A DNA stretch of 64,000 nt from Desulfatiglandales bacterium. Its GTDB lineage: Bacteria; Desulfobacterota; DSM-4660; Desulfatiglandales; Desulfatiglandaceae. Below are positions 13,771 through 62,939 of this stretch, in pieces. Location of the stretch: contig OY759599.1 of assembly GCA_963662465.1 (NCBI GenBank), positions 6,720,001-6,784,000 on the forward strand. The letters are read 5' to 3'. The notes below the pieces were generated by a model that worked only from the letters and a program-made list of their open reading frames with translations, did no database searches and was not told the origin of the DNA. Each line of letters begins with the position of its first letter. Within the stretch, counting starts at the first letter, position 1. The translations under genes and the position numbers were made by a program.

Positions 13771-13857
13771 GCCGAAGTGGCGGAACTGGTAGACGCGCTA
13801 GGTTCAGGGTCTAGTGAGCGAATGCTTGTGCGAGTTCGAGTCTCGCCTTCGGCACCA
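13771..13857 (+). tRNA. tRNA-Leu(CAG)
   Basis: GCCGAAG acceptor stem, GGTAGAC D-loop, anticodon loop TTCAGGG, long variable arm, GTTCGAGTC, 3' CCA. Confidence 0.97.
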
Positions 13858-14271: not shown

Positions 14272-14663
14272 AGTTGATCCAATGGATGACTTAGGTGCGC
14301 CCTCTACGCCGGTGGTACAACAGTTCCGTGCAGGCAGTTGACAGACCTGCAACCTGACCATATCCGCTGACACTGGGCAGCGGCATAAGACCTATTAATC
14401 TTCGTAGGTCCTTCGCTTGTGATCGACGCTTAAAGACATTCAGATACCTTCACCATATCATCCGACCCTGGCCCTTAACCGGGGAGGATTCCCGGAGGGG
14501 TTTTCCTGTCACCATTCAAACCCAATTCGGTACGTTGTCCGCAGGGCTTCACACCCCGTCATCAGCGCAACGGCAGCATGCCTGCGTAGGGTCCGGTAGG
14601 AACATACCGGGTACTACATGTAACTACATGAATACACTCAAACTATGCGACTTCGTGTCGCAA
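14272..14663 (-). mobile_element. 5' fragment (domain I) of a CL-type group II intron inserted in attC R'
   Basis: Begins TTGCGACACGAAGTCG; near-identical to 31940-32326. Confidence 0.8.
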
Positions 14664-17108: not shown

Positions 17109-17654
17109 CTCCATCACTTCGAATAAAACCAGCACGTGTATTGAACTTAATTTCAGCTATCTCGGCCCCTTTTAAGGTCCCTCGAATCATTTCATAGGTC
17201 TCGACCGGGTAATTCCCGTTTTGTAAACTGCCCATAACGAGGTCCCCTTCCTGAGTTATAGCTATGGTTCCATTAAAAGTCTTTCCGCAAGAACTCTTTG
17301 TAACAGCGTGCCACATACCGGATAGGTTATAGACTAATGCTCCATTTGGAAGTTTAACCGTATTCGGCATATCAGCATTTAGTCTTACTCCATCCCGCAT
17401 GGCGGAATTGCAGGCAACACCACATAATAAGATGAAGAAACCCATGACAAACCATTTTTTCATTTTAGACATGCTCCTTTCAGCTAAGACTGGGATCGAA
17501 AAACAATTCTACCATTCAAAATATCTCATTAGAATTTTATTGACAAAAATATTGTAAGAGAGAGCGGGGAAAGGTAGATCACCCCCCGCCGCCGCCTCTC
17601 TTTTTAAAACCGGAAAACTCTTCAACAAGGTCACTTCAGAACCGCAAATTAAAA

Positions 17655-18227
17655 TCACTTTCCAGGCAGGCTATAGGTTGCCGTAACCTCCACAAGAGCA
17701 TCACCTTTGCTTTCTCCGGCGAAGGGTTTGAGCATCCTGACCTTAAAGGTATTCTTTCCCTGAATGCCTTTGAACCGGCCCGTTCCGCAAATATATTTCC
17801 CCGTCCCATGTCCGGCTGGAAGTTTGCCTTCTTTGAGCTTTGTCATAACCCCTTCTACTTTTACCAGAGCCGTAGATCCATCTTTAAAGATAAGCTGGGA
17901 ATATCCCTGAAAGGTTCCCAGTCCCCGAACTATATCAAAGGTACATCTCAGAAGTTGCTTGGCTTTCTCGCCGTCTTCATATTCCACATCGCCTTGGCGC
18001 TCATAAAAACCGATGACCCGGCCCGGTGAATCCGGTATGGGTATGGCCTGCATCTTGGTAATCCAGTTATTGACCTTGAAATTACGGGTTACTTCGCCAG
18101 CCTGCACGACGGATGTCAACACACACAGTGAAATGACGAGGGTCATGAAGCACAGTGCCCATGGATTCAGAATTCCCCTGCCGCTGTTTCTACCTGTAAT
18201 GTTCATGCTAGTTTCTCCTTTTCCCAT
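17655..18227 (-). CDS. Secreted hypothetical protein (cassette)
   Basis: Signal peptide ...SVVQA; G.G.Y..GTGRFKGI.G motif; identical to 42426-42998. Confidence 0.7.
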   Translation of the reverse strand: MGKGETSMNITGRNSGRGILNPWALCFMTLVISLCVLTSVVQAGEVTRNFKVNNWITKMQAIPIPDSPGRVIGFYERQGDVEYEDGEKAKQLLRCTFDIVRGLGTFQGYSQLIFKDGSTALVKVEGVMTKLKEGKLPAGHGTGKYICGTGRFKGIQGKNTFKVRMLKPFAGESKGDALVEVTATYSLPGK

Positions 18228-18408
18228 TTTTCAATTGTGGTTTAACATTTTCTGAGCCGCATGATCGAATTTCCTTTTTCATCACCTCCCTTTTCCTATG
18301 AATTCTCAAAAATCTGCGAAAATATTACCCATGGCGCAGTCTTGTTGACGGGTCTGACCGTCAACATTTTTTGGTTTCGCGAAAATGCTACTATCACCGC
18401 GAACGTTT

Positions 18409-23100: not shown

Positions 23101-23229
23101 CGGCCTCCAAGATAATTGAGACTGAAAAAAAGACTATGAGCAGGGCTGTACATATGGATTGTATCTATAATACGAAACGAATCTATAAATGCCAAATACC
23201 AAATTTGGGGGTTCTACGTCTTTGAAGGC

Positions 23230-25353
23230 TCTCACGGTAGGAACGCCGGTCACCCAGCGCCCCCCGCACAGTCCCGGACGTGCGGTTTTCCCGCATCCGG
23301 TTCCTCGGTTGTACTCGCTTTCGCGCAAAGCATCAGCATTAGCAAAACACCTTTCGTGGCCGGGGTGCCGTCGGTAGCTTCGGTTTGGCGATCCCCAGGC
23401 GATTTATGGCCCGGTTGAAAGCCTTCCAGGTGAAACTTCTCCGCTTACCCCCTCTTCGGTTCAGCCACTTAAACGCACAATCACTCGCCCATCGGTAAAA
23501 ACGCCATAACGAATTGGCGTTCCCCACCACGCTGTAATAGTTGTAATGTCCGCGCAGTTTGCGGTTGAGCGTCTTTATGAACGCAATCCCCTTCAAATGT
23601 CGGTTTTCCTTCACCCATTCCTTGATGCGCCTGCAGGCACCCTGCAGCTTTTTACGGCCGGTGCGCTGCATGACTCTCACCTTTCCCTGTTTGTCATAGG
23701 TCCAGTAGGTCTCAAAACCCAAAAAGACAATCCGCCTGCGCATGCTCGGATCAAAACGACTGAATCGCATCATGGCGGTTTTATCAGGCGCTACACTGAG
23801 GCCAAACTTCAAAAGCCTTTCGGGCAGCACGTGGAAAAACCCTTTTGCCTCTTTTTTGTACTGAAAAGCACAGACAAAATCATCTGCGTACCGAATGATC
23901 ATGGCGGCCCCTTTACAGTGGGGCTTCACCACCTTTTCAAACCATAAGTCAAGGGCAAAATGCAGGTAGACATTGGCCAAAACCGGCGATACAATCCCCC
24001 CTTGGGGAGTACCGCTGTCCGGATGGATAATTTTGCCATCCGTATCCAGAATGCCGGCTTTAAGCCATTTTTGGATCAGATTTAAAAACGGCGCATCATC
24101 AACTCTTTCCATGAGCATTCGCATCAGCCAATCATGGTCCATATGGTCGAAAAAGCCTTTGATATCGGCCTCGACGACATATCCATATGATCCAAACTGA
24201 AGTTCAAAACGCAAATCATTGACAGCGTCTTTTGCGCTTCGGTTGGGCCTGTAACCATAGCTGACATTCAGAAAGTCAGCTTCGAATATGGCTGTCAGGA
24301 GTTTGGCACATGCCAATTGCACCAACCGGTCTTCAAGGGCCGGAATGCCCAAGGGGCGTTGTTTGCCGTTTTCTTTGGGGATGTAACTTCTGCGTACCAG
24401 TTTGGCACGGTAACGTCTGGTTTTCAATCGCTCCGCCAATGACGCGATATTGGCCTCAAGATTTCCTTCGTAGGCCTCGGCCGTCACTTTGTCCACACCA
24501 CTGGCTGCATCCTTATTCAGGTCTTTCCAGCAGGCACGGAGAAACGGCGCGTTCAGACACCGGTAAAGGTCTTGAAAGCGGTGTTTTCCATCAACTTTTG
24601 CCTTAATGGCTATTCCCTGCAGTGAGGTTGGCTCGTATTGTTCCAGCCCTACATTGTCCGGTGCGAGTTTCCTTTGCAGACTGCGTACTTCCGTCAGGTC
24701 CTTCCCCATGTGGTGGGCTTTCCCCACCGCTGAGTAGTATGCCTGATAAGACACCCCATTGGCGTATAGAGGGCCATCGGAGGTCCGATTTTCCTCCCAC
24801 CCGGTTGTTCCTTTCAGCATTTCGGCTGTGTAGTGAACCACTGTTACTTTACCTCACCGTCAGTGTGAAATAAACTCCCTGGAGCCTTTGGGGCTTCCCG
24901 AGTTCTACGGCGCATCTCTTCCTGCATGCCACGGCCTGAGGACTCCGGCGGACCTCCACATCCTCGCCATAAACGGATGCTTCCGTGTTGCCTTCGGTGA
25001 ACGTTCAAACCCTCGGCGTCCGCAATTGCTATTTCGAAGCTGTACCAGCACTTCAGGGTGCGCGATCACCCCTGCGGCCTACAGGATACTCTGCCTACGC
25101 TTAACCCATCTTGTTCGCTGCTTCCACCGTTAGGTGGGGTGAGTCCATCCGCCTATTTGCTCATCCCTGAGCGCGGCTCGTTTCCAACCAGCATATGAAT
25201 GCCGATGTCCTACACCTGACAGACTGAACAACTCCGCCATGGGTCCAAGGCTCGATACGGGTGGGTGGCTAACCCTTACAGAAAGCCATTACTGATTTTC
25301 CTCCCGACAGGGACTTTCACCCTGCAAGATACGCCGAGCTTTCCTCGGCGCGA
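23230..25353 (-). mobile_element. Group II intron (class E-like) inserted in attC R'
   Basis: 5' end TCGCGCCGAGGAAAGCTCGGCG; DV GAGGAACCGGATGCGGGAAAACCGCACGTCCGGGACTG; 3' CCTACCGTGAGA; removal restores GTTCGCC; ends accurate to +/-1 nt. Confidence 0.82.
23339..24841 (-). CDS. Group II intron reverse transcriptase/maturase (no endonuclease domain)
   Basis: RPLGIP, DIKGFFD, GTPQGG, RYADD, LRGHYNYY; the true start is probably later than 24841. Confidence 0.92.
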   Translation of the reverse strand: MVHYTAEMLKGTTGWEENRTSDGPLYANGVSYQAYYSAVGKAHHMGKDLTEVRSLQRKLAPDNVGLEQYEPTSLQGIAIKAKVDGKHRFQDLYRCLNAPFLRACWKDLNKDAASGVDKVTAEAYEGNLEANIASLAERLKTRRYRAKLVRRSYIPKENGKQRPLGIPALEDRLVQLACAKLLTAIFEADFLNVSYGYRPNRSAKDAVNDLRFELQFGSYGYVVEADIKGFFDHMDHDWLMRMLMERVDDAPFLNLIQKWLKAGILDTDGKIIHPDSGTPQGGIVSPVLANVYLHFALDLWFEKVVKPHCKGAAMIIRYADDFVCAFQYKKEAKGFFHVLPERLLKFGLSVAPDKTAMMRFSRFDPSMRRRIVFLGFETYWTYDKQGKVRVMQRTGRKKLQGACRRIKEWVKENRHLKGIAFIKTLNRKLRGHYNYYSVVGNANSLWRFYRWASDCAFKWLNRRGGKRRSFTWKAFNRAINRLGIAKPKLPTAPRPRKVFC

Positions 25354-25354
25354 G

Positions 25355-25478
25355 AACGTTTTAGTTAACAGGCGAACGGGCAAGAAAGAAATATGCGACC
25401 AATCCACCCGGAAGCGTGATACGGAAAAATCAATTTCAATTTGCTCCAATGACCAGTTTGCCTGTTCAACGGCTGGTT
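25355..25478 (-). repeat. attC site (divergent, long)
   Basis: AAC-GTTTTA-GTTAACAGGCGAAC...GTTTGCCTGTTCAAC-GGCTG-GTT. Confidence 0.75.
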
Positions 25479-26985
25479 GGACAGACCCGCGGGTCACACG
25501 CACATAGGTTAATGGGAGCAGGATCGCCGCTATGGAGATTAAACGATCTTTGCAGCTACCGCATGACTTCTTTTTGACCCATCATTCCGGCCTAAGCCAG
25601 TTAAAAATGATAAAATTTCTTTTTTTGATCGCATGGTCCCGCTAAAAATGCCAAAATATCGTGTTATTAGGCAGTTTACCAAACACCTCGACATCAAAAA
25701 CCTTTCACTCGACTAAAGACCTTTCGACTGCGCATGCTTAATCTATGCTGCTTGGGCGTGTATCATGTCCTGGACTTTATTGAACCTCGGAAGCTCTCTT
25801 AACTTTTTGACCGGCGTCAATATTTCCAGAGTTATGAGGCGTTTCCCGCAAACAGGGCAACAATCCGGTCGCTCGTCGCTTCGCTGTTGCCAGAGACTCT
25901 GCCAATCCAGGAATCCCAGACTTTCAAGAGGCGGTTGACCCAGTATTTCCCGGCAGAGTGCCAGTTCTTCTTTTGAGCTGTGATGATAGAGTTCGTATGA
26001 ACGCACCATCACGGTATTTGCTAGGGGGACGTGTTGCAGATAGCGGCTGATAAAGGTTTGAATCGGCAGGGAGATGAGTTTTACCTTCTCACGACCGTAA
26101 TTGAAGGTCACGTTCCCGTTTTCAATGCTGTAGATGCGTTTGTTTGAAATTGCTCCGCCTCTCAAGTAACGCGCCAGGTAAATCAACACGCCTTCACCGT
26201 ATGAATAGGTCTCTTTGAGCTTGACGTTCCATTTTTTGCGGCGGCCCAGTTTATTGAAGAGGTTCCGGGCCTGCTGAGGCCCCATACCCTCGGGCAGAAC
26301 CAGTTCGTTCCGATCCAGGGCTTTTCTCAAATAGTAGAGGTACTTGCCTCGAAATACCGCCCGGACGATGCCAAAGGGCAAAAGGAATTTTTTTGATGAA
26401 GCGATCCACTCGCCGGCGATCAGCCCACCGGCCGTTACCAGACAATGCAGATGCGGATGAAAGTCCAGTTTTCGGCTCCAGGTATGCAGTGAGGCGATGA
26501 TGCCGACTTTGCCCCCCAAATGCTTCGGATCTCCAAGGAGTTCGGAAAGGGTTTCAGTGGCGCTTTTGAACAGCAGATTGCCCATAAGCTTGCGGTTCAA
26601 CCGCCATAAGTCGTGCAATTCATCGGAGATGGTGAAAATAACATGGAAATGTTCGGTGTTTAAGATGCGAGCCTTTTGTTTTGCCAGCCAACGTTCCACC
26701 TGGGTAAAAGCGCAGAGGGGGCACATGCGATGTTTACACGAGTTGTACCAGTGCCTTTTGAAGTGACCGTCCGGGCACGCCTGCACGTGACCCCCCAGAG
26801 CAGATGTGCGGCAACTCATCAGACGGTGTGCCGCTTCACGAATATGTTCCGGAAGAAGATGGGTCTGATCATAGAGGGCATAGCCTATAAGAAAGATGCT
26901 CTGAATCGTCGCTTCCACTGAAACCTCCTTTATTTACTGGGAGTTACGACGTTAGTTCCCCCGCTGTCCAGCGGGTCTGTCCAAC
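25476..26985 (-). mobile_element. IS91-like element/cassette bounded by a 15-bp inverted repeat GTTGGACAGACCCGC
   Basis: IR at 25476-25490 and 26971-26985, coinciding with attC R boxes. Confidence 0.75.
25743..26918 (-). CDS. IS91-family (Y2 HUH) rolling-circle transposase
   Basis: CRT..LGG, NSCKHRMCPLC zinc domain, HVIFTI, LHTW, HPHLH, YLARY. Confidence 0.92.
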   Translation of the reverse strand: MEATIQSIFLIGYALYDQTHLLPEHIREAAHRLMSCRTSALGGHVQACPDGHFKRHWYNSCKHRMCPLCAFTQVERWLAKQKARILNTEHFHVIFTISDELHDLWRLNRKLMGNLLFKSATETLSELLGDPKHLGGKVGIIASLHTWSRKLDFHPHLHCLVTAGGLIAGEWIASSKKFLLPFGIVRAVFRGKYLYYLRKALDRNELVLPEGMGPQQARNLFNKLGRRKKWNVKLKETYSYGEGVLIYLARYLRGGAISNKRIYSIENGNVTFNYGREKVKLISLPIQTFISRYLQHVPLANTVMVRSYELYHHSSKEELALCREILGQPPLESLGFLDWQSLWQQRSDERPDCCPVCGKRLITLEILTPVKKLRELPRFNKVQDMIHAQAA

Positions 26986-27958: not shown

Positions 27959-28246
27959 TTATCGAATTTCAGCTTTAAAATCCTTCAACAATCTTTCCGC
28001 CTTCTCCTTACCGTAATTCCTTACCATTTCATCCCATACAGGTGAATTCCGAATTCGCTTTTGATATTCTTTTGTCATTTGTTTTAATTGTTCTGAAGAA
28101 GGAGCAGAGCTCGGTGAAACAAAATGGATTCCATCATCGTCGGCCCAGGAAATCGACTGATTCAAGGACTGTTTGTGAAGACAACATTTTTTGTATTTTT
28201 GCCCGCTTCCGCATGGACAGGGGTCATTCCTTCTAATTTTTTTCAT
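27959..28246 (-). CDS. SEC-C motif protein
   Basis: [17 protein letters not shown]. Confidence 0.8.
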
Positions 28247-28388
28247 TTATCATCACCCTATTCTCCTATGGGTATGGTAGTTGATGTTACCCATCAACTT
28301 GGAGCTCTCTTTTTCGTAGATACCACAGATGTCCTCCTGCCGGGTAGCCGGGGGATGTTGCCATCCCCGAGCCCCCTCAGAACCACTA

Positions 28389-28775
28389 TATAATGCCCAT
28401 CAAAACCAGTTTATAACTTGGGTATATTACCCATTTCACCCAAGAACCGGTGAAGAAATTTATGTGGTAGGTACCAGAAACCATCGTGGAGAAACTTGTT
28501 TTGTAACAAAGAAACCTGATGGTCGCCATGAATTGATACCTGCGTGGATGACCAATCCAAAGTATGAAAAGATATCCCTCGGCTCAAAACCCGCTATCGA
28601 AATCAGGGCGCTTAAGAATTTATATTGCTTAATAGTGAATAGAAAAATACCGTTTCCTCCTGATGAAGTCAATTCGAAAACAAGGAGGAAAGATGACGAA
28701 ACAAAAATATCATCAACTTCGGCTTTGGGATTATTTACCATCACCGATCGAAATTCCAATAGAAACACGAAATAG
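28389..28775 (+). CDS. DUF5372 (Y4bD/Y4pK)-like accessory protein
   Basis: VYYPFHPRTG...PDG...IPAWMT motif typical of ORFs upstream of this recombinase type; start codon unclear. Confidence 0.55.
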   Translation, partial: YNAHQNQFITWVYYPFHPRTGEEIYVVGTRNHRGETCFVTKKPDGRHELIPAWMTNPKYEKISLGSKPAIEIRALKNLYCLIVNRKIPFPPDEVNSKTRRKDDETKISSTSALGLFTITDRNSNRNTK

Positions 28776-29053
28776 ATTGATTGATTTCCTTGCAGAGCTT
28801 CTGTCAGGTTTCTGGCAAAATTCTGAGGGTAACAGAAATAGAAAAGAGAAGTAGTTTCACTAACGTAAAATCGCGGTCTGATATTGGAAGCAGTCAAGAG
28901 ACTGGAGTTGTTGAAGCAAGCAGCTTAATCCGACTCAGAAAAATCGTAACTATAAATCATAAATAGCTTATTTTCCGATAGAAATAGGTGTTTAATTGAA
29001 AAACGTACGCGGTATTCAAAAATATTGGACGAATTTGAAGGTGAAAAGGAGCG

Positions 29054-29260
29054 ATGAAAATGAGAGGTGGGAGTCGAAAAGGCGCTGGTCGAAAAAGGAG
29101 TCCTGAACATCTGAGGCGTATCCCCGTCACGATTCGGTTACGGAAGTGGATGGTTTCACAGATCAAAATGAAAGGCGAGATAGGGTATTTGATTGAACTC
29201 GAATTAGCGACGAAAAAGGGTTTTCTCGACTTACCAGATGATTATCTGGTCGGAAGCTGA
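29054..29260 (+). CDS. Small basic hypothetical protein (RGG.RKGAGRK motif)
   Basis: AGGAG RBS; basic N-terminus then a possible ribbon-helix-helix. Confidence 0.5.
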   Translation: MKMRGGSRKGAGRKRSPEHLRRIPVTIRLRKWMVSQIKMKGEIGYLIELELATKKGFLDLPDDYLVGS

Positions 29261-29416
29261 CTAAGGTGCGGTTATGGTCGCTCTTTTAATGGATATTTCG
29301 GCAGGAGCCACCGGAGCCTTCTATGACCTCGTCGCAGCTTACAATTACTCATATGGGGGTCAAAATTCGGTTGTCGCAAGAGGTCAATTTTCGGTTGACA
29401 TTTCGAGAAAAGAAAG

Positions 29417-31510
29417 GTGGAAATGAGCATGAGCAATAAAATCAATGCTGAACATATTAGTCGGGAAGCATGTATATATATCCGTCAGTCAACACCGGGC
29501 CAAGTTCTACAGCATCGTGAAAGCCAACTTTTACAATATGGCTTGGTAGAAAGGGCAAAAGAATTAGGATGGAACGAGAAAAACATATGGATGATAGATA
29601 GTGATTTGGGAATAACTGCATCGGGATGCGTTGACAGAAAAGGATTCCAGAATCTTCTTTCATCTGTGTGTGAAGGAAGAATAGGGGGTATTTTCTCGAT
29701 TGAATCATCGAGGTTGGCCCGCAACGGTCGAGAGTGGCATACGTTGCTTGAGATCTGTGCACTTAAAAAAACGGTTCTTGTAGATCAAGGAGCTGTTTAT
29801 GACCTAAACGTGTCAAATGATCGTTTGCTCCTGGGCTTAAAGGGAGAAATGAGTGCAATGGAATTGAGCCTATTAAAGGAGCGTTCTCAGGCGGCAATAC
29901 AACAAAAAGCGAAGCGGGGAGAATTATATCTTACTGTACCGGCAGCCTATATAAAGACTAGGGATAATAAGCTGAAAAAGAATCCTGACAAACGAATTCA
30001 AGAAGTCATTGATTTGGTATTCACGAAATTCAAGGAATATGGTACTCTTCGTCGGGTGTATCATTGGTTTTTAGATGAACAGATTGAGATTGCTGTTGTT
30101 TCCAGCGGTAAAGGGGAACGTAGGATAGAGTGGAAACTACCGTCTGCTCATACCTTGTCGCATATAGTGAACAACCCAATTTACGCCGGCGCCTACGTCT
30201 ATGGCCGGACTAAAACAGAGGTAACTTTTGAAAATGGGCGCAAGCGACTGAGGAAGGGTATTCGTAAGGAACAAAAGGATTGGGACGTTTTAATATTGGA
30301 TCACCATGAAGGTTACATCACATGGGAAGAGTACCAGTATAACATGGAGATACTAACTCAAAATACAAATAAGAAAAGGCCGGTGGTGAGAGGAGCTGTT
30401 CGCGGAGGAAAGGCATTGCTTGGAGGTTTGTTAAGATGCGGTCATTGCGGTAGAAAGTTAATTGTACGATACCAAGGCCGTAATGGAACTCATAAACGTT
30501 ATGAGTGTAGCCGCAAACGAGGTAACGAGACAGGAAAGGCGTGTATATCATTTGGTGGATTCCGTGTTGACCGGGCTGTTACGGATTTTCTTTTGAAAGT
30601 ATTATCACCGATAGGATTAGAAGCTTCTTTAGAGGCGATAAAGAAAATCAACCATGAATCGGATTCAGTGAAACGGCAACGGGAACTGGAGTTGGAACAA
30701 GCGCGTTATGAAGCTTTACGGGCAAAACGTCAATACAATGCAGTAGACCCTGATAATCGTTTGGTAGCATCTACATTGGAGAAGGATTGGAATGACGCTC
30801 TTGTTAAGGTAGCAAGATTGGAGAATGAGGTTGACGCCATGGGATCGAACACCCCTTCGCTTTCCCCTGAGGAGGAGACTGAGATCAGAGATCTATCAAA
30901 AGATTTACCTCGTGTATGGAATGATCCGTTTTGCTCTTTGGATTTAAAGAAGCGTATAATCCGGACGGTTATCAAAGAGATCGTTGTTTATTTGGAAGAT
31001 CAAAAGATCAAATTAATCATTCACTGGGAAGGGGGTGAGCATACGGAATTGGAGGTATTGAAGAATAAGTCTTCCAGTTACCCATTGAAAACCGATGTTG
31101 ATACAAAAAAGATAATATCCGATTTGGCTAGAATTATGCCTGATAAACACATCGTGGCCTTTCTCAACCGTGTGGGTACAAAGACTACAAAGGGATATAC
31201 CTGGAATCCGGTAAGGTTGCGTTCATTTCGAAATAGGCATAATATCCCTGTATATCATGAAGGAGAGAGGCAGCGACGAGAAGAATATACGGTAGCTGAA
31301 GCAAGCGAAAGGCTGGGTATTGGCAGCACCAAAGTTTGGAGACTTATACAACATGAGATTCTACCCGCCAAGCGAGTATGTTCCGGTGCTCCATGGATCA
31401 TTTCAAAAAAGGACCTTGAATCTGAAGTGATAAAAAAGGCAGCTCATTCCGGGCTTCCAAAGAGCCCGCTTTCAAGAAACTCAAAACAACAAGTCTTTAA
31501 TTTTCAATAA
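29417..31510 (+). CDS. Large serine recombinase
   Basis: YIRQST catalytic Ser, SRLARN, NPIYAG recombinase domain, LLGGLLRCGHCG zinc ribbon, C-terminal HTH. Confidence 0.93.
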   Translation: MEMSMSNKINAEHISREACIYIRQSTPGQVLQHRESQLLQYGLVERAKELGWNEKNIWMIDSDLGITASGCVDRKGFQNLLSSVCEGRIGGIFSIESSRLARNGREWHTLLEICALKKTVLVDQGAVYDLNVSNDRLLLGLKGEMSAMELSLLKERSQAAIQQKAKRGELYLTVPAAYIKTRDNKLKKNPDKRIQEVIDLVFTKFKEYGTLRRVYHWFLDEQIEIAVVSSGKGERRIEWKLPSAHTLSHIVNNPIYAGAYVYGRTKTEVTFENGRKRLRKGIRKEQKDWDVLILDHHEGYITWEEYQYNMEILTQNTNKKRPVVRGAVRGGKALLGGLLRCGHCGRKLIVRYQGRNGTHKRYECSRKRGNETGKACISFGGFRVDRAVTDFLLKVLSPIGLEASLEAIKKINHESDSVKRQRELELEQARYEALRAKRQYNAVDPDNRLVASTLEKDWNDALVKVARLENEVDAMGSNTPSLSPEEETEIRDLSKDLPRVWNDPFCSLDLKKRIIRTVIKEIVVYLEDQKIKLIIHWEGGEHTELEVLKNKSSSYPLKTDVDTKKIISDLARIMPDKHIVAFLNRVGTKTTKGYTWNPVRLRSFRNRHNIPVYHEGERQRREEYTVAEASERLGIGSTKVWRLIQHEILPAKRVCSGAPWIISKKDLESEVIKKAAHSGLPKSPLSRNSKQQVFNFQ

Positions 31511-32329
31511 CGTACGGAGGTGTGTATTATGCCGCTATTACCCTCAGAACCACGCATGAGACTTTCACCTCACGTGGCTCAAGCCCCCGAAAAGGTTTCC
31601 CTGGTGGGGATTCCCGCAGATTTGCATCCACTTCACGTTACAGGCCGGCTGTCAGAATAGCCAAAGGCGCACGGGGCGCACCAGCCTCAAGGGCCGTCAT
31701 TCGCCCGTTTCACTGGCTGCTTTCCCCGCTTTCATCTGATTCCTCCGGTGTTCACGTGATCGGGCACCGCGCTGAACGTCTGCCTCCTTACGGAGCCGGG
31801 AATGTTTCACCCGGTATCCGGGCCATTACAGCCCGGCATTCGCTTCTTTCAGCCTCCTATTCCGGCCCGCCAACAGCATGCCTTGCGGTTAGCCTGCCCC
31901 CAAAAGGGGCGACGGGACCGGGTTTCCACGTTCCGCATAGTTGATCCAATGGATGACTTAGGTGCGCCCTCTACGCCGGTGGTACAACAGTTCCGTGCAG
32001 GCAGTTAGCAGACCTGCAACCTGACCACATCCGCTGACACTGGGCAGCGGCATAAGACCTATTAATCCTCGTAGGCCCTTCGCTTGTAATCGACGCTTAA
32101 AGACATTCAGATACCTTCACCATATCATCCGACCCTAGCCCTTAACCGGGGAGGATTCCCGGAGGGGTTCTCCTGTCACCATTTGAACCCAATTCGGTAC
32201 GTTGTCCGCAGGGCTTCACACCCCGTCATCAGCGCAACGGCAGCATGCCTGCGTAGGGTCCGGTAGGAACATACCGGGTACTATAACTACTTGAATACAC
32301 TCAAACTATGCGACATCGTGTCGCAAGCC

Positions 32330-32407
32330 AACGACAAGCTCACCAGCGCCTCCTCCGGCCCCCGCTGGGACCGCTCAAGTATCAGGCGTCTGGTGGAGCG
32401 TTTGGTT
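32330..32407 (-). repeat. attC site (host family)
   Basis: Repeat family match; R'' GGCCAAC matches R' GTTGGCC at 33506-33512. Confidence 0.88.
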
Positions 32408-32645
32408 GGCCGCACTCAGACCGCGCTAATAGCTCAGCACCGCATAGAAACTGGAGTGGCACTTTGCCTCATAGATAACGCCTTATTGCATTTGAAGATT
32501 CACCAGCAATTTCGCGTTATTGAATAATTTCATAGGCTCAACTAAACGTCGCATAGCTCACCCTAAAAAGAACTTTTTCCTTATTCGTTCTTCCCATTAC
32601 TTCCGCTTTGGCGCCACCCCACCCCAGAATCGCAGAAAGGACTTC

Positions 32646-41757: not shown

Positions 41758-42243
41758 CTATTTTATTTTTCTTTGGTCACGAATCTCTATTTTATTTTTC
41801 GTCAAGGTGGTGTCCCACCTTATATTATCGGTAGGCAATTCGGTGCTTATGTTCATTTCCTTCCCACTGTTAAGGTTTTCTCCATCACTTCGAATAAAAC
41901 CAGCACGTGTATTGAACTTAATTTCAGCTATCTCGGCCCCTTTTAAGGTCCCTCGAATCATTTCATAGGTCTCGACCGGGTAATTCCCGTTTTGTAAACT
42001 GCCCATAACGAGGTCCCCTTCCTGAGTTATAGCTATGGTTCCATTAAAAGTCTTTCCGCAAGAACTCTTTGTAACAGCGTGCCACATACCGGATAGGTTA
42101 TAGACTAATGCTCCATTTGGAAGTTTAACCGTATTCGGCATATCAGCATTTAGTCTTACTCCATCCCGCATGGCGGAATTGCAGGCAACACCACATAATA
42201 AGATGAAGAAACCCATGACAAACCATTTTTTCATTTTAGACAT
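41758..42243 (-). CDS. Putative lipoprotein (cassette)
   Basis: MSKMKK...GVAC lipobox-like signal. Confidence 0.7.
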   Translation of the reverse strand: MSKMKKWFVMGFFILLCGVACNSAMRDGVRLNADMPNTVKLPNGALVYNLSGMWHAVTKSSCGKTFNGTIAITQEGDLVMGSLQNGNYPVETYEMIRGTLKGAEIAEIKFNTRAGFIRSDGENLNSGKEMNISTELPTDNIRWDTTLTKNKIEIRDQRKIK

Positions 42244-42425
42244 GCTCCTTTCAGCTAAGACTGGGATCGAAAAACAATTCTACCATTCAAAATATCTCAT
42301 TAGAATTTTATTGACAAAAATATTGTAAGAGAGAGCGGGGAAAGGTAGATCACCCCCCGCCGCCGCCTCTCTTTTTAAAACCGGAAAACTCTTCAACAAG
42401 GTCACTTCAGAACCGCAAATTAAAA

Positions 42426-42998
42426 TCACTTTCCAGGCAGGCTATAGGTTGCCGTAACCTCCACAAGAGCATCACCTTTGCTTTCTCCGGCGAAGGGTTT
42501 GAGCATCCTGACCTTAAAGGTATTCTTTCCCTGAATGCCTTTGAACCGGCCCGTTCCGCAAATATATTTCCCCGTCCCATGTCCGGCTGGAAGTTTGCCT
42601 TCTTTGAGCTTTGTCATAACCCCTTCTACTTTTACCAGAGCCGTAGATCCATCTTTAAAGATAAGCTGGGAATATCCCTGAAAGGTTCCCAGTCCCCGAA
42701 CTATATCAAAGGTACATCTCAGAAGTTGCTTGGCTTTCTCGCCGTCTTCATATTCCACATCGCCTTGGCGCTCATAAAAACCGATGACCCGGCCCGGTGA
42801 ATCCGGTATGGGTATGGCCTGCATCTTGGTAATCCAGTTATTGACCTTGAAATTACGGGTTACTTCGCCAGCCTGCACGACGGATGTCAACACACACAGT
42901 GAAATGACGAGGGTCATGAAGCACAGTGCCCATGGATTCAGAATTCCCCTGCCGCTGTTTCTACCTGTAATGTTCATGCTAGTTTCTCCTTTTCCCAT
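42426..42998 (-). CDS. Secreted hypothetical protein (duplicate of 17655-18227)
   Basis: Identical translation. Confidence 0.7.
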   Translation of the reverse strand: MGKGETSMNITGRNSGRGILNPWALCFMTLVISLCVLTSVVQAGEVTRNFKVNNWITKMQAIPIPDSPGRVIGFYERQGDVEYEDGEKAKQLLRCTFDIVRGLGTFQGYSQLIFKDGSTALVKVEGVMTKLKEGKLPAGHGTGKYICGTGRFKGIQGKNTFKVRMLKPFAGESKGDALVEVTATYSLPGK

Positions 42999-43172
42999 TT
43001 TTCAATTGTGGTTTAACATTTTCTGAGCCGCATGATCGAATTTCCTTTTTCATCACCTCCCTTTTCCTATGAATTCTCAAAAATCTGCGAAAATATTACC
43101 CATGGCGCAGTCTTGTTGACGGGTCTGACCGTCAACATTTTTTGGTTTCGCGAAAATGCTACTATCACCGCG

Positions 43173-60713: not shown

Positions 60714-62939
60714 GTCGAGTAGCCAGGGGATGTTGCCATCCCCCAGCCCTCTAAGAACCGTGCGTGCGCCGTTAAACGCACACGGCTCAAGCATTCCAAA
60801 GGCAAGCCCTTTCGGGGCTACCCGGTTGTGACGTTTTATGCTCTTTACGCCTGTCTGCCTTCTGCTGACTGCGTTGGGCATATCGTTTCCTGAAATAGTG
60901 TTCATATTTCGGATCGAAGGGGTTCGCATCCCCTCGAATTTTGACATGGCGTTTTATCTTGACGTCGTAAGCTTTCTCAAGTTCAATTCTAGCGGATTTC
61001 GCATAGCCGTCCTTGATCACCGCTGAAAAGGACCACGGACGAGATCCTTTTGACCAGTATTTATCCACCAGCCAACTCTTACTCTTGCCCGAATGTTTCC
61101 TCCTCATCCATTGCCAAATATAGCTGTAGATACGGTGATCTACAAGCCCGAAAGTTCTACCGGAAACCACATGCCTGTGGTAATTGGCCCATCCCCTGAT
61201 TTTGGGATTGAGCACTTTAATCAGGGTGTCGGCTCTTGATGCCGCATGCTTTCGGATCGTTTGCCGGATATTGCCTAAGAAGGCTTTCACGTTTTTACGA
61301 GAGGGCTTTATCAAGAGCTTCCCCTGGTATTTGCGTGGATTCTGTCCGAGAAAATCAAATCCTTCTTCTATCCTTGTGATCAACGTCTTTTCCGCTGAAA
61401 GCGAAAGTCCTCTTCGCTCCATAAATGCTTCAATTTCCAGCTTGATCTCATTTAGCATCTCTCTGGAATTCCCGGTGATGATGAAATCATCAGCGTAACG
61501 GATTACGTTTATCTTGGACCGTATATTGCCCTGGATTCTTATCGGGGCGGTACTTTTGGCTGCCGCTTCCAGACCATCCAGGACCATATTAGCCAATGTT
61601 GGAGAGATAATCCCGCCTTGCGGGGTTCCTCTGTAAGTCGGATAGAGCTTGCCTCCTTCCACATAACCGGATTTCAGCCATTTCTGAAGCGTCCGTTTAT
61701 CCATGGGGATATTTTCGAGCATCCATTGATGGCTGATTTCGTCAAAACAGGCCTTTATGTCTCCCTCCAAAATCCATGCGGGTGAGTAGCTCTTGGCCAG
61801 AGAAATAAAACAATGACCGATGGCATCCGCACATCCTCGATAGGCTCTGAACCCATAAGAGTTCGGATCGGCGGTGGTTTCCGCCACCGGATCAAGGGCC
61901 AGTTTGTGCAACGCCTGCATGGCTCTGTCTTTCATGGTGGGAATGCCCAATGGGCGTTTCTTGCCGTTTTTCTTGGGTATGTAAATTCGGCGCAGCGGTT
62001 TGGGTCGGTAAGTTCTTCGGTGCAGGTCTTTTGCCGCCTGCATTTTGTCAATGTGGGTGGACCATATAACTTTATCCACTCCCGGCGTGCGTTTACCTCG
62101 GTTGGAAGTAACGCGCTTGATGGCCAACAACTTGGCATAAAACGAATGGGTCAAAAGCCATTGTATTGCCTTAACCTTTCCCCATCGCTTTTCCTTCACA
62201 GCCTTTGCGATACGCACCTGCAGTCTTCTAACGTGCTCGCCGGCGGTTCTCCAGTTTATGGATTTCCACCAGTTTGTTCCGTCCAAAGGTGCACCAGTCG
62301 CCAAAATGGCCACCGTCATTTGCTTTCCCCTGTTTGAAGATTCTACAAATTATCTCGCAATGGAACACCGGTCAGAAGTCTGCTCTCTTTCGAGCCGGAT
62401 CATGTAGGTGATTACACCGTCAATCCGTATCCCCATCATTACAACGGGGCATTTGCTTTTTTCTGACATCCTTTACCCGCAACCCCATGGGCTCACCTTG
62501 CGGTTCGCTTTCCCCGTGGGGAGGATTACGGGCTTACCATGTTCCGCGTAAGTACCCGAGCAGGTTAGGTTCCGCCCGTACGCCGGTGGCACGACATCCG
62601 CGATGGAGGAGTTCGCAGCCCCCATACCTGGCCACATACCGTTTGGTCCAAGCCTTTCAGCATCTTAGGCTTGTTCTCGTGACGACGCTGCAGCGATTCA
62701 CATGTGTTAACCATACTGCTCAATTCTAGCTCCCTTACCGCATGATGCTTGCAGAGTTGAGGTCTCCTCACGGTTCCCTCTCCCGGAAGATTCCGCGGGC
62801 TTCATTGTCCCGAGAGCTTCACACCCCCGGATTACTCCGGACGCATGTCCCGGTAGAATACCTGTTGCAGAAAACAGGGTTTTGTTATATGGTTTATATC
62901 AATATACAAAACAGCTACTTACGCGACATCACGTCGCAC
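60714..62939 (-). mobile_element. Complete CL-type group II intron inserted in attC R'
   Basis: 5' GTGCGACGTGATGTCG; DV GAGCCGTGTGCGTTTAACGGCGCACGCACGGTTC; 3' CTACTCGAC; removal restores GTTCGCG. Confidence 0.9.
60787..62319 (-). CDS. Group II intron reverse transcriptase/maturase (CL lineage, no HNH domain)
   Basis: RVT_N (VRRLQVRIAKA), RPLGIPT, GTPQGG, RYADD, IRGWANYH. Confidence 0.93.
   Translation of the reverse strand: MTVAILATGAPLDGTNWWKSINWRTAGEHVRRLQVRIAKAVKEKRWGKVKAIQWLLTHSFYAKLLAIKRVTSNRGKRTPGVDKVIWSTHIDKMQAAKDLHRRTYRPKPLRRIYIPKKNGKKRPLGIPTMKDRAMQALHKLALDPVAETTADPNSYGFRAYRGCADAIGHCFISLAKSYSPAWILEGDIKACFDEISHQWMLENIPMDKRTLQKWLKSGYVEGGKLYPTYRGTPQGGIISPTLANMVLDGLEAAAKSTAPIRIQGNIRSKINVIRYADDFIITGNSREMLNEIKLEIEAFMERRGLSLSAEKTLITRIEEGFDFLGQNPRKYQGKLLIKPSRKNVKAFLGNIRQTIRKHAASRADTLIKVLNPKIRGWANYHRHVVSGRTFGLVDHRIYSYIWQWMRRKHSGKSKSWLVDKYWSKGSRPWSFSAVIKDGYAKSARIELEKAYDVKIKRHVKIRGDANPFDPKYEHYFRKRYAQRSQQKADRRKEHKTSQPGSPERACLWNA

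Follow-up and report, generated by a model that had tools for sequence, protein, structure and literature searches.

The element and the intron that it interrupts

The window analyzed here, a stretch of 64,000 nucleotides from a Desulfatiglandales bacterium (assembly GCA_963662465.1, contig OY759599.1, positions 6,720,001 to 6,784,000 of the forward strand; genome G000 below), carries a group II intron interrupted by an element that encodes a large serine recombinase. A 13-bp direct repeat, CCCTCAGAACCAC, was found at window positions 28374 and 31541, and the unit between its copies measured 3,167 bp, in agreement with the first-pass annotation, which had described a 3.17-kb unit flanked by such repeats. 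By chance, the repeat would be expected about 3e-4 times in the two junction windows and 0.24 times in the whole genome. The 13-mer was seen 13 times in the genome, 11 times at element ends and twice in empty sister introns, and nowhere else.

The recombinase open reading frame (ORF; 29417..31510, plus strand, 697 aa) matched Resolvase, Recombinase, Zn_ribbon_recom and HTH_17, all above the Pfam cut-offs, and the matches to PF00239, PF07508 and PF13408 place it among the large serine recombinases. Its layout comprised a catalytic domain, a recombinase domain, a zinc ribbon with a coiled coil, and a C-terminal HTH_17. In an alignment of 54 sequences, R23-Q24-S25 was invariant, with the nucleophile S25 kept throughout, and C341, C344, C364 and C376 were conserved; the C-terminus ended in a Q-x-x-(L/F)-x-F motif. 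Among the named NCBIfam recombinases (XisF, CcrA/B/C), the best score was 113.5 bits against a cut-off of 375, and the protein is not a member of these families. Upstream lay the body of a DUF5372 gene without a start codon (28377..28775, plus strand), assigned from Pfam, fold and complex model; its Pfam match was weak (E 5e-4, below the cut-off), and the Atlas neighbours of the protein carry DUF5372. Next came the conserved ORF2 (28693..28854, plus strand, 53 aa), which occurs in relatives directly upstream of the recombinase, and a 562-bp extra segment (28855..29416, plus strand), delimited by BLAST gaps against L002, L016, L018 and L025. This segment is lacking from the usual 2.6-kb relatives and, among the loci examined, was present only in the copies of this genome and in genome G528; it encodes a 68-aa ORF (29054-29260) with weak ribbon-helix-helix leads in the Atlas. 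A 73%-identical stretch sits in another, three-copy repeat of the genome. None of the four element ORFs scanned matched a relaxase family, and viral contigs gave no match to the element.

We removed the element in silico and obtained an 821-nt ORF-less group II intron that was 96% identical over its full length to an empty copy at G000 3333982-3334806, so the proposal that removal rebuilds an intact DV-DVI pair (domains V and VI) was borne out. The 5' part of the intron, domain I to domain V (DV), occupied 31545..32326 on the minus strand; Rfam matched D1D4-7 at 32138-32278 and Intron_gpII at 31512-31582 (45.8 bits), and sister introns, with and without the element, were 96-98% identical. Rfam and the folds gave the domains expected of a group II intron: domain I, DV with the AGC triad, and domain VI (DVI) with a bulged A. 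DV (31547..31580, minus strand) was intact, and its hairpin was complete and folding in the integrated state. DVI, with the bulged branch A and the intron 3' end, was displaced to 28339..28375 (minus strand), ending as in empty sisters. DV and DVI were thus not contiguous in the window copy: 3,167 bp lay between them, and in the occupied state DVI, the branch point and the 3' splice site sit 3.17 kb from DV. The earlier placement of the insertion inside catalytic DV was not upheld, since the hairpin is whole and the crossover falls just 3' of it.

Crossover register and choice of target

To define the crossover, we compared both element ends in 35 loci. The results showed that one dinucleotide register was identical at both ends in 29 of them, against 10/35 and 22/35 for the neighbouring registers, as expected for the 2-bp core of a large serine recombinase. 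In the window this dinucleotide lies at 31543..31544 in attR (plus strand; CT on the plus strand, AG in the intron sense), two bases 3' of DV in the intron sense, and at 28376..28377 in attL (plus strand). The B' arm of attR consists of the 3' arm of DV, and the B arm of attL of DVI together with the 3' end of the intron. The sequences thus show that recombination takes place at a 2-bp core located two bases beyond DV, with the element antisense to the intron; because the crossover lies there, DV stays whole and folding and DVI is displaced. The stretch common to both ends is 13 bp in the window copy and only 11 bp (copy C) or 7 bp (copy F) elsewhere, indicating that the repeat reflects shared att identity around the crossover rather than a target duplication. 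The joined element ends were symmetric about the core, with an inverted motif 12 bases to either side. At L027, where the core is palindromic, DV was found on both sides, joined in inverted orientation; serine recombination allows inverted joining at a palindromic core.

The genome held seven copies of the element, 99.1-100% identical, and its read depth of 6.4-6.7 times the unique flank (two runs, one sample) agreed with this number. Left ends adjoined DVI in 7/7 copies and right ends adjoined DV in 6/7, in three intron types. Five copies had interrupted members of the ORF-less family, each between a different pair of exons; copy C lay in another intron, yet differed from copies A and B by only 8-11 bases. 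The left end of copy F was at the DVI of a third intron type, and its right end was joined to an IS91-like ORF within a base of the crossover; the simplest account is that about 2.8 kb was deleted. In a recurring pair of a reverse transcriptase (RT) intron and an IS91-like cassette, the stretch between the two seems to have given way to copy F. Element and intron divergences were not congruent (A-B, 0.22% vs 3.54%; D-G, 0.19% vs 2.43%; D-E, 1.08% vs 1.36%; Spearman -0.36 over 10 pairs, p 0.31), which argues that the element entered pre-existing introns several times and that the insertions were largely independent.

We then asked which sites are used by homologous recombinases. A protein search returned 7,999 hits among 8,000 scored candidates, the best of them on short contigs, as expected for repeats. 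Of the 95 loci fetched, 87 besides those of this genome were analyzed, 46 in the clade of the query (52-84% identity) and 41 others; L009, L011, L013 and L014 (minus-strand matches) and L006 and L007 (no usable hit) were left out of the junction counts. Flanks were scored with nhmmer profiles trained on 17 DV-DVI types of this genome. DV was found in 19 of 23 testable right flanks of the clade and DVI in 21 of 28 left flanks, and among the non-clade relatives in 0/26 and 0/25, respectively. A regular expression for DV gave 15/23 in the clade versus 0/26 outside; the one for DVI discriminated poorly (10/28 versus 3/25) and was set aside for the profiles. In an independent Rfam scan of 40 loci, 21 had a right flank, and in 15 of these a DV-type match adjoined the stop codon of the recombinase gene; seven exceeded the gathering score. 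In a quick tree of 83 rows, labelled by eye and excluding L003 and L056 (stops), L015 and N-truncated rows, the 38 DV-labelled rows formed one side of a single branch (Shimodaira-Hasegawa-like approximate likelihood ratio test support, 94). Targets varied widely within one register: 28 B arms included 25 different sequences, and 18 B' arms included 16. The element has thus inserted time and again, here in three types of intron and elsewhere in a wide variety of them. Carriers were few in the phylum and class samples (7/401 and 4/209, counting G000), where multicopy elements are often unassembled.

Empty sites were also found: genomes of the same genus carry the same intron without the element (L110, L111, L113 and L115), and empty sister introns occur in G000, G523 and G528. 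Together with the homologue flanks, these show what is expected of a site-specific element, an empty attB and the same site in independent insertions. DVs with the preferred context were occupied in six cases and empty in three (for the ORF-less family as a whole, five occupied and three empty with a whole DV). The intron near 60750, which the first-pass annotation had named as a candidate second target, proved a poor one for this recombinase: it has the same central dinucleotide, differs on both sides, and none of 11 DVs of its type was occupied, nor any of 13 of another type (Fisher test for 6/9 vs 0/11, p 0.002, which is overstated since the copies are kin). Relatives L019, L020 and L022 do use the 60750-type intron. 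The suggestion that DV serves as a conserved, multicopy attB therefore stands as regards a conserved multicopy intron site, but the target is the DV-DVI junction and not the inside of DV.

A low-specificity transposon, inserted by chance with a 13-bp target duplication and later copied with its intron or by segmental duplication, would fit the five of seven copies in one intron family and the few off-site junctions (copy F, L023, L033). It does not fit three intron types here plus a fourth DVI at an element end in G528, the diversity of B and B' arms in a single register, the shrinking of the common stretch in copies C and F, or the incongruent divergences and differing exons. Insertion of homologues at unrelated sites, the outcome that would have pointed to chance, was not what their flanks showed; the flanks refute this explanation, and we hold it to be extremely improbable.

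Beyond the clade, the genes interrupted by distant relatives code for IstB, hit at its Walker A motif, for transposases of the IS66 and ISAzo13 kinds, and for AAA_16 ATPases; of 16 flank frames, 13 received a Pfam name, and in 12 it was one of these families. Sister clades therefore appear to use conserved motifs of insertion sequence (IS) genes in the same way. The target of L089, read by eye, was a magnesium chelatase-type motif. The flanks of L010, a distant relative (37%), were group II intron RT coding sequence and not DV, which would make it a separate intron-targeting lineage.

An occupied intron might still be a tolerated passenger, splicing over the element with DVI docking from 3 kb or with a substitute DVI, and retrohoming with it. 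The intact DV, an Rfam score above threshold for DV plus the element end, and the occupancy of most ORF-less copies here are in keeping with this. We looked for a substitute DVI in the element end and rejected it: the sequence there showed no DVI-like fold (z +0.61), and the CCTCC in it is complementary to the Shine-Dalgarno motif described below. Element and intron distances did not track each other, and the DV-DVI linker is normally a few bases long and positions the branch A. The element thus leaves DV intact and displaces DVI without providing a replacement. We consider the passenger explanation unlikely, and an occupied intron is probably unable to branch or retrohome.

A DUF5372 gene split by the attachment site

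The start of the DUF5372 gene was found at the far end of the element: a Shine-Dalgarno motif and an ATG at 31529 (31516..31531, plus strand) lay in the right end, five codons before the right crossover, and came into frame with the body only across the circle junction. The circle-joined ORF was 137 aa in the window and was open in all 35 loci with both ends; because the left anchor was set relative to the DUF motif, this count tests a conserved register and does not amount to 35 independent one-in-three chances. The frame was conserved even where recombinase identity fell to 46% and where targets were unrelated. A Shine-Dalgarno-like motif was present in 48 of 55 right ends, and both the window copy and 49 of 60 loci had no start codon in frame ahead of the invariant YxxHP motif. 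The att site thus divides the gene, and only a circular, excised element can carry it in one piece.

To characterize the product, we predicted its structure alone and with the recombinase. DUF5372 was predicted as a small SH3/KOW-like barrel with a helix (predicted local distance difference test score, pLDDT, 74); fold searches gave generic SH3/KOW matches only (best Z 5.0, root-mean-square deviation 2.0, 48 aligned), and Foldseek none at E<=0.001. The model of DUF5372 with recombinase residues 325-697 scored 0.69, compared with 0.00 for the best of three controls; runs agreed in at least 85% of contacts, and partner pLDDT was at least 71. The calibration of the score mark, which 116 of 157 solved pairs attained as against 2 of 215 mismatched ones, applies here roughly. 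Contacts were predicted at recombinase residues 337-347, 395-408 and 480-544, in the zinc ribbon and the base of the coiled coil (by our own reading of its limits) and not at the coil tip, and the invariant H21, P22 and L82 of DUF5372 fell within the interface. The sole sequence relative found in the PDB covers the catalytic domain only, which makes recall of a similar complex by the model unlikely. In the accessible parts of PMC12286644 and PMC11722253, verified recombination directionality factors (RDFs) are predicted to bind the DBD2-CC junction, and the former also reports false positives. DUF5372 is therefore predicted to be a recombinase-binding cofactor, docking at the base of the zinc domain and coiled coil where directionality factors bind.

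We consider it probable that the unit is an IS-sized integrative element whose large serine recombinase uses the DV-DVI junction of group II introns as attB. The element would excise as a circle, the circle would make DUF5372, and the recombinase would integrate the circle at another DV-DVI junction and split the gene again. Precise excision would restore the intron, and introns would offer a harmless, self-multiplying landing pad. On balance, we favour the view that circle-made DUF5372 is a directionality cofactor whose synthesis is turned off by integration. In the boldest variant, which is less likely than not, the recombinase would excise unaided, and the circle-only DUF5372 would license integration and then be silenced by integrating. 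The element would then also be a reversible on/off switch for intron splicing.

DUF5372 might instead be a classical excision factor, which would leave the targeting unchanged and differ only in the direction in which the cofactor acts. A rare first excision would then yield RDF from the circle, other copies would excise in a burst, and re-integration would be delayed, giving a bistable switch. The predicted site is the known RDF site, and the joined ends have ordinary symmetric attP arms. Known RDFs, however, are made before excision, and because genes for replication or transfer are missing from the element, a circle that blocked its own integration would risk being lost. This remains a real alternative to which we give somewhat less than an even chance. 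The Shine-Dalgarno motif, ATG and frame could also be incidental, with a recombinase that needs no cofactor, as for TnpX and TndX, which catalyse both directions without an RDF according to the part of PMC5704250 available to us. The Shine-Dalgarno-like motif was absent, by the test used, in 7 of 55 right ends. An incidental frame is hard to reconcile with its retention in 35/35 loci, with recombinases down to 46% identity and unrelated targets, and with the three invariant interface residues, and we judge it improbable.

Several observations weigh against the reading that we favour. The cores at the two ends were unlike in 6/35 loci, through either mismatch tolerance or assembly chimeras. Four of 23 right flanks were non-DV at the crossover (L023, and L033, L034 and L053, which are one sequence), as was copy F; where testable, these loci had DVI on the left and another site on the right, and secondary sites or deletions thus occur. 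The left flank of L016 was not DVI, the loci are not all independent, and the preferred core also occurs in three introns of this genome that carry no element. In 11/60 loci a GTG or TTG lay in frame ahead of the YxxHP motif, and 15 codons upstream in the window copy there is an ATG in the flank, with no obvious Shine-Dalgarno motif of its own; because of these, some DUF5372 may be made by leaky translation from the integrated element. The docking is a prediction from modelling. Finally, no circle junction was present in the contigs of four runs (of 22 listed), although contigs drop rare forms.

The same contigs contained joints that skip 3,167 bp, at single-copy depth (34 and 48). The empty sister intron accounts best for these joints. 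Skips were also seen at lower depth, one of 3,166 bp at depth 3-5 and another, at depth 3, in X6; these were inseparable from variants. None was counted as excision, and skipping joints were rejected as evidence for it.

Relation to known elements and genomic setting

We compared the element with known mobile elements. Like Tn4451/Tn4453 (TnpX) and Tn5397 (TndX), as covered in part of PMC5704250, it combines a large serine recombinase with a 2-bp crossover and, probably, a circular intermediate. Tn4451 and Tn5397 are clostridial, have low target specificity and no cofactor, and carry resistance and mobilisation genes, whereas this element has a fixed register at the DV-DVI junction of a ribozyme, a split gene for a predicted cofactor, and no transfer genes. 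A further parallel is a junction-dependent expression switch, which in these clostridial elements is a promoter formed at the circle joint; viewed by eye, the circle junction here had a TATAAT and no -35 box of a sigma-70 promoter.

Serine-integrase integrative and mobilizable elements (IMEs), prophages and IME_oriT likewise insert site-specifically and disrupt a dispensable conserved target, and such targets are sometimes multicopy and in another mobile element; IME_oriT has a tyrosine integrase and targets the oriT of integrative and conjugative elements (all from the portion of PMC5704250 available). Unlike IMEs and prophages, the present element spans 2.6-3.2 kb and lacks genes for a relaxase, a capsid or conjugation (no search for oriT was made). 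Its target is a junction of non-coding RNA domains, outside the reach of a target-gene survey. It thus works like the TnpX/TndX elements and the site-specific serine-integrase IMEs, but lacks the mobilisation genes and the low specificity. For phage integrase/RDF pairs (SPbeta SprA/SprB, phiC31/gp3), too, the partner is predicted to bind at the junction of zinc domain and coiled coil. Their RDF genes are intact in the integrated state, while the DUF5372 candidate has no start codon until the circle forms.

The element belongs with a unit of pNGR234a (NGR_RS29820-29835, presumably y4bA-D, NGRRS-1) that has the same order of DUF5372 gene, small ORFs and recombinase, the latter 35% identical; it adjoins an ISNCY transposase gene and is not within an intron. 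We found no paper on its att sites. Relatives were carried by 459 plasmid records, mostly rhizobial, of which L097 and L098, read by eye, end in an IstB-type Walker A sequence. Magnesium chelatase is a common target in the consulted parts of Durrant 2023 (PMC10083194), and group II introns are not named as targets in the main-text passages and eight supplements searched. Paper listings, the openings of abstracts, and the searched text and supplements of Durrant 2023 held no description of intron targeting or of DUF5372.

A selfish element for which the best-conserved part of the group II ribozyme serves as a DNA address could plausibly restrain the spread of introns, and might be one of the sources of the fragmented introns of bacteria. 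The reading gives DUF5372 a testable function. It also offers a compact system (recombinase, att sites at base-pair level and candidate cofactor) for direction control in serine-recombinase transposons without phage genes. The related recombinases, with dozens of readable, different targets, form a natural series for the study or engineering of specificity. More tentatively, and with considerable doubt, they may represent a widespread, undescribed hyperparasite family whose clades are tuned to motifs of other mobile elements and whose directionality is run by a cofactor gene assembled by recombination.

Some minor features of the element were also recorded. The recombinase C-terminus (window 31489-31510; Q691 invariant, F696 near-invariant) and the ORF2 N-terminus (window 28693-28730), where many relatives have a Q-L-x-L-F-like motif, resemble the beta-clamp-binding motif, whose consensus Q-L-x-L-F was taken from part of PMC4549789. 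These motifs are a lead for replication-linked copy gain only. The copy G recombinase is interrupted (G000 3315892-3318743) by a 2.85-kb two-ORF insertion, a fourth nesting layer, which recurs at G000 2503315 and, in pieces, near 3.58 Mb. At L109 (G528:C7), the element ends after 813 bp at a transposase-like insertion.

The intron itself begins with TTGCG right behind an attC core, and its 5' exon is an attC-like repeat (32329..32410, minus strand) of a kind that recurs through the window (families D1-D3). An integron integrase (IntI) scored above cut-off at G000 6792755, 8.7 kb beyond the window end. These repeats and the nearby integrase support the proposed nesting of recombinase element within intron within integron. 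A SEC-C motif gene (27959..28246, minus strand) belongs to the cassette downstream of the intron, on its 3' exon side. The intron is oriented as the cassettes are, just behind the attC core, and not opposite to them as in IIC-attC introns, which insert in the bottom strand of attC; the same cassette-like orientation is reported for the IIB1 intron UHB.I2 in the part of PMC7923331 consulted.

Elsewhere, the ORF-less family inserts a few bases behind the GTT core of attC/attI-like sites, in cassette orientation and with varying flanks, and one member lies directly behind the 3' end of another intron. A 5'-half copy of the same intron (window 14272-14663) ends after about 390 nt beside a Phd-like antitoxin ORF, near a tRNA at 13771 at the array end. 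An RT-encoding group II intron beside an IS91-like (Y2_Tnp) cassette (window 23134-26918) recurs as a pair at G000 6785796-6789551. Whole cassettes are duplicated within the array at about 100% identity (window 17109-18250 and 41880-43021; 20378 and 62943). Chimeric intron ends, with the DV of one family (or its start) and the DVI of another, were found at G000 289006 and 2366487 and at L110, possibly produced by recombination at or near the same DV-DVI junction.

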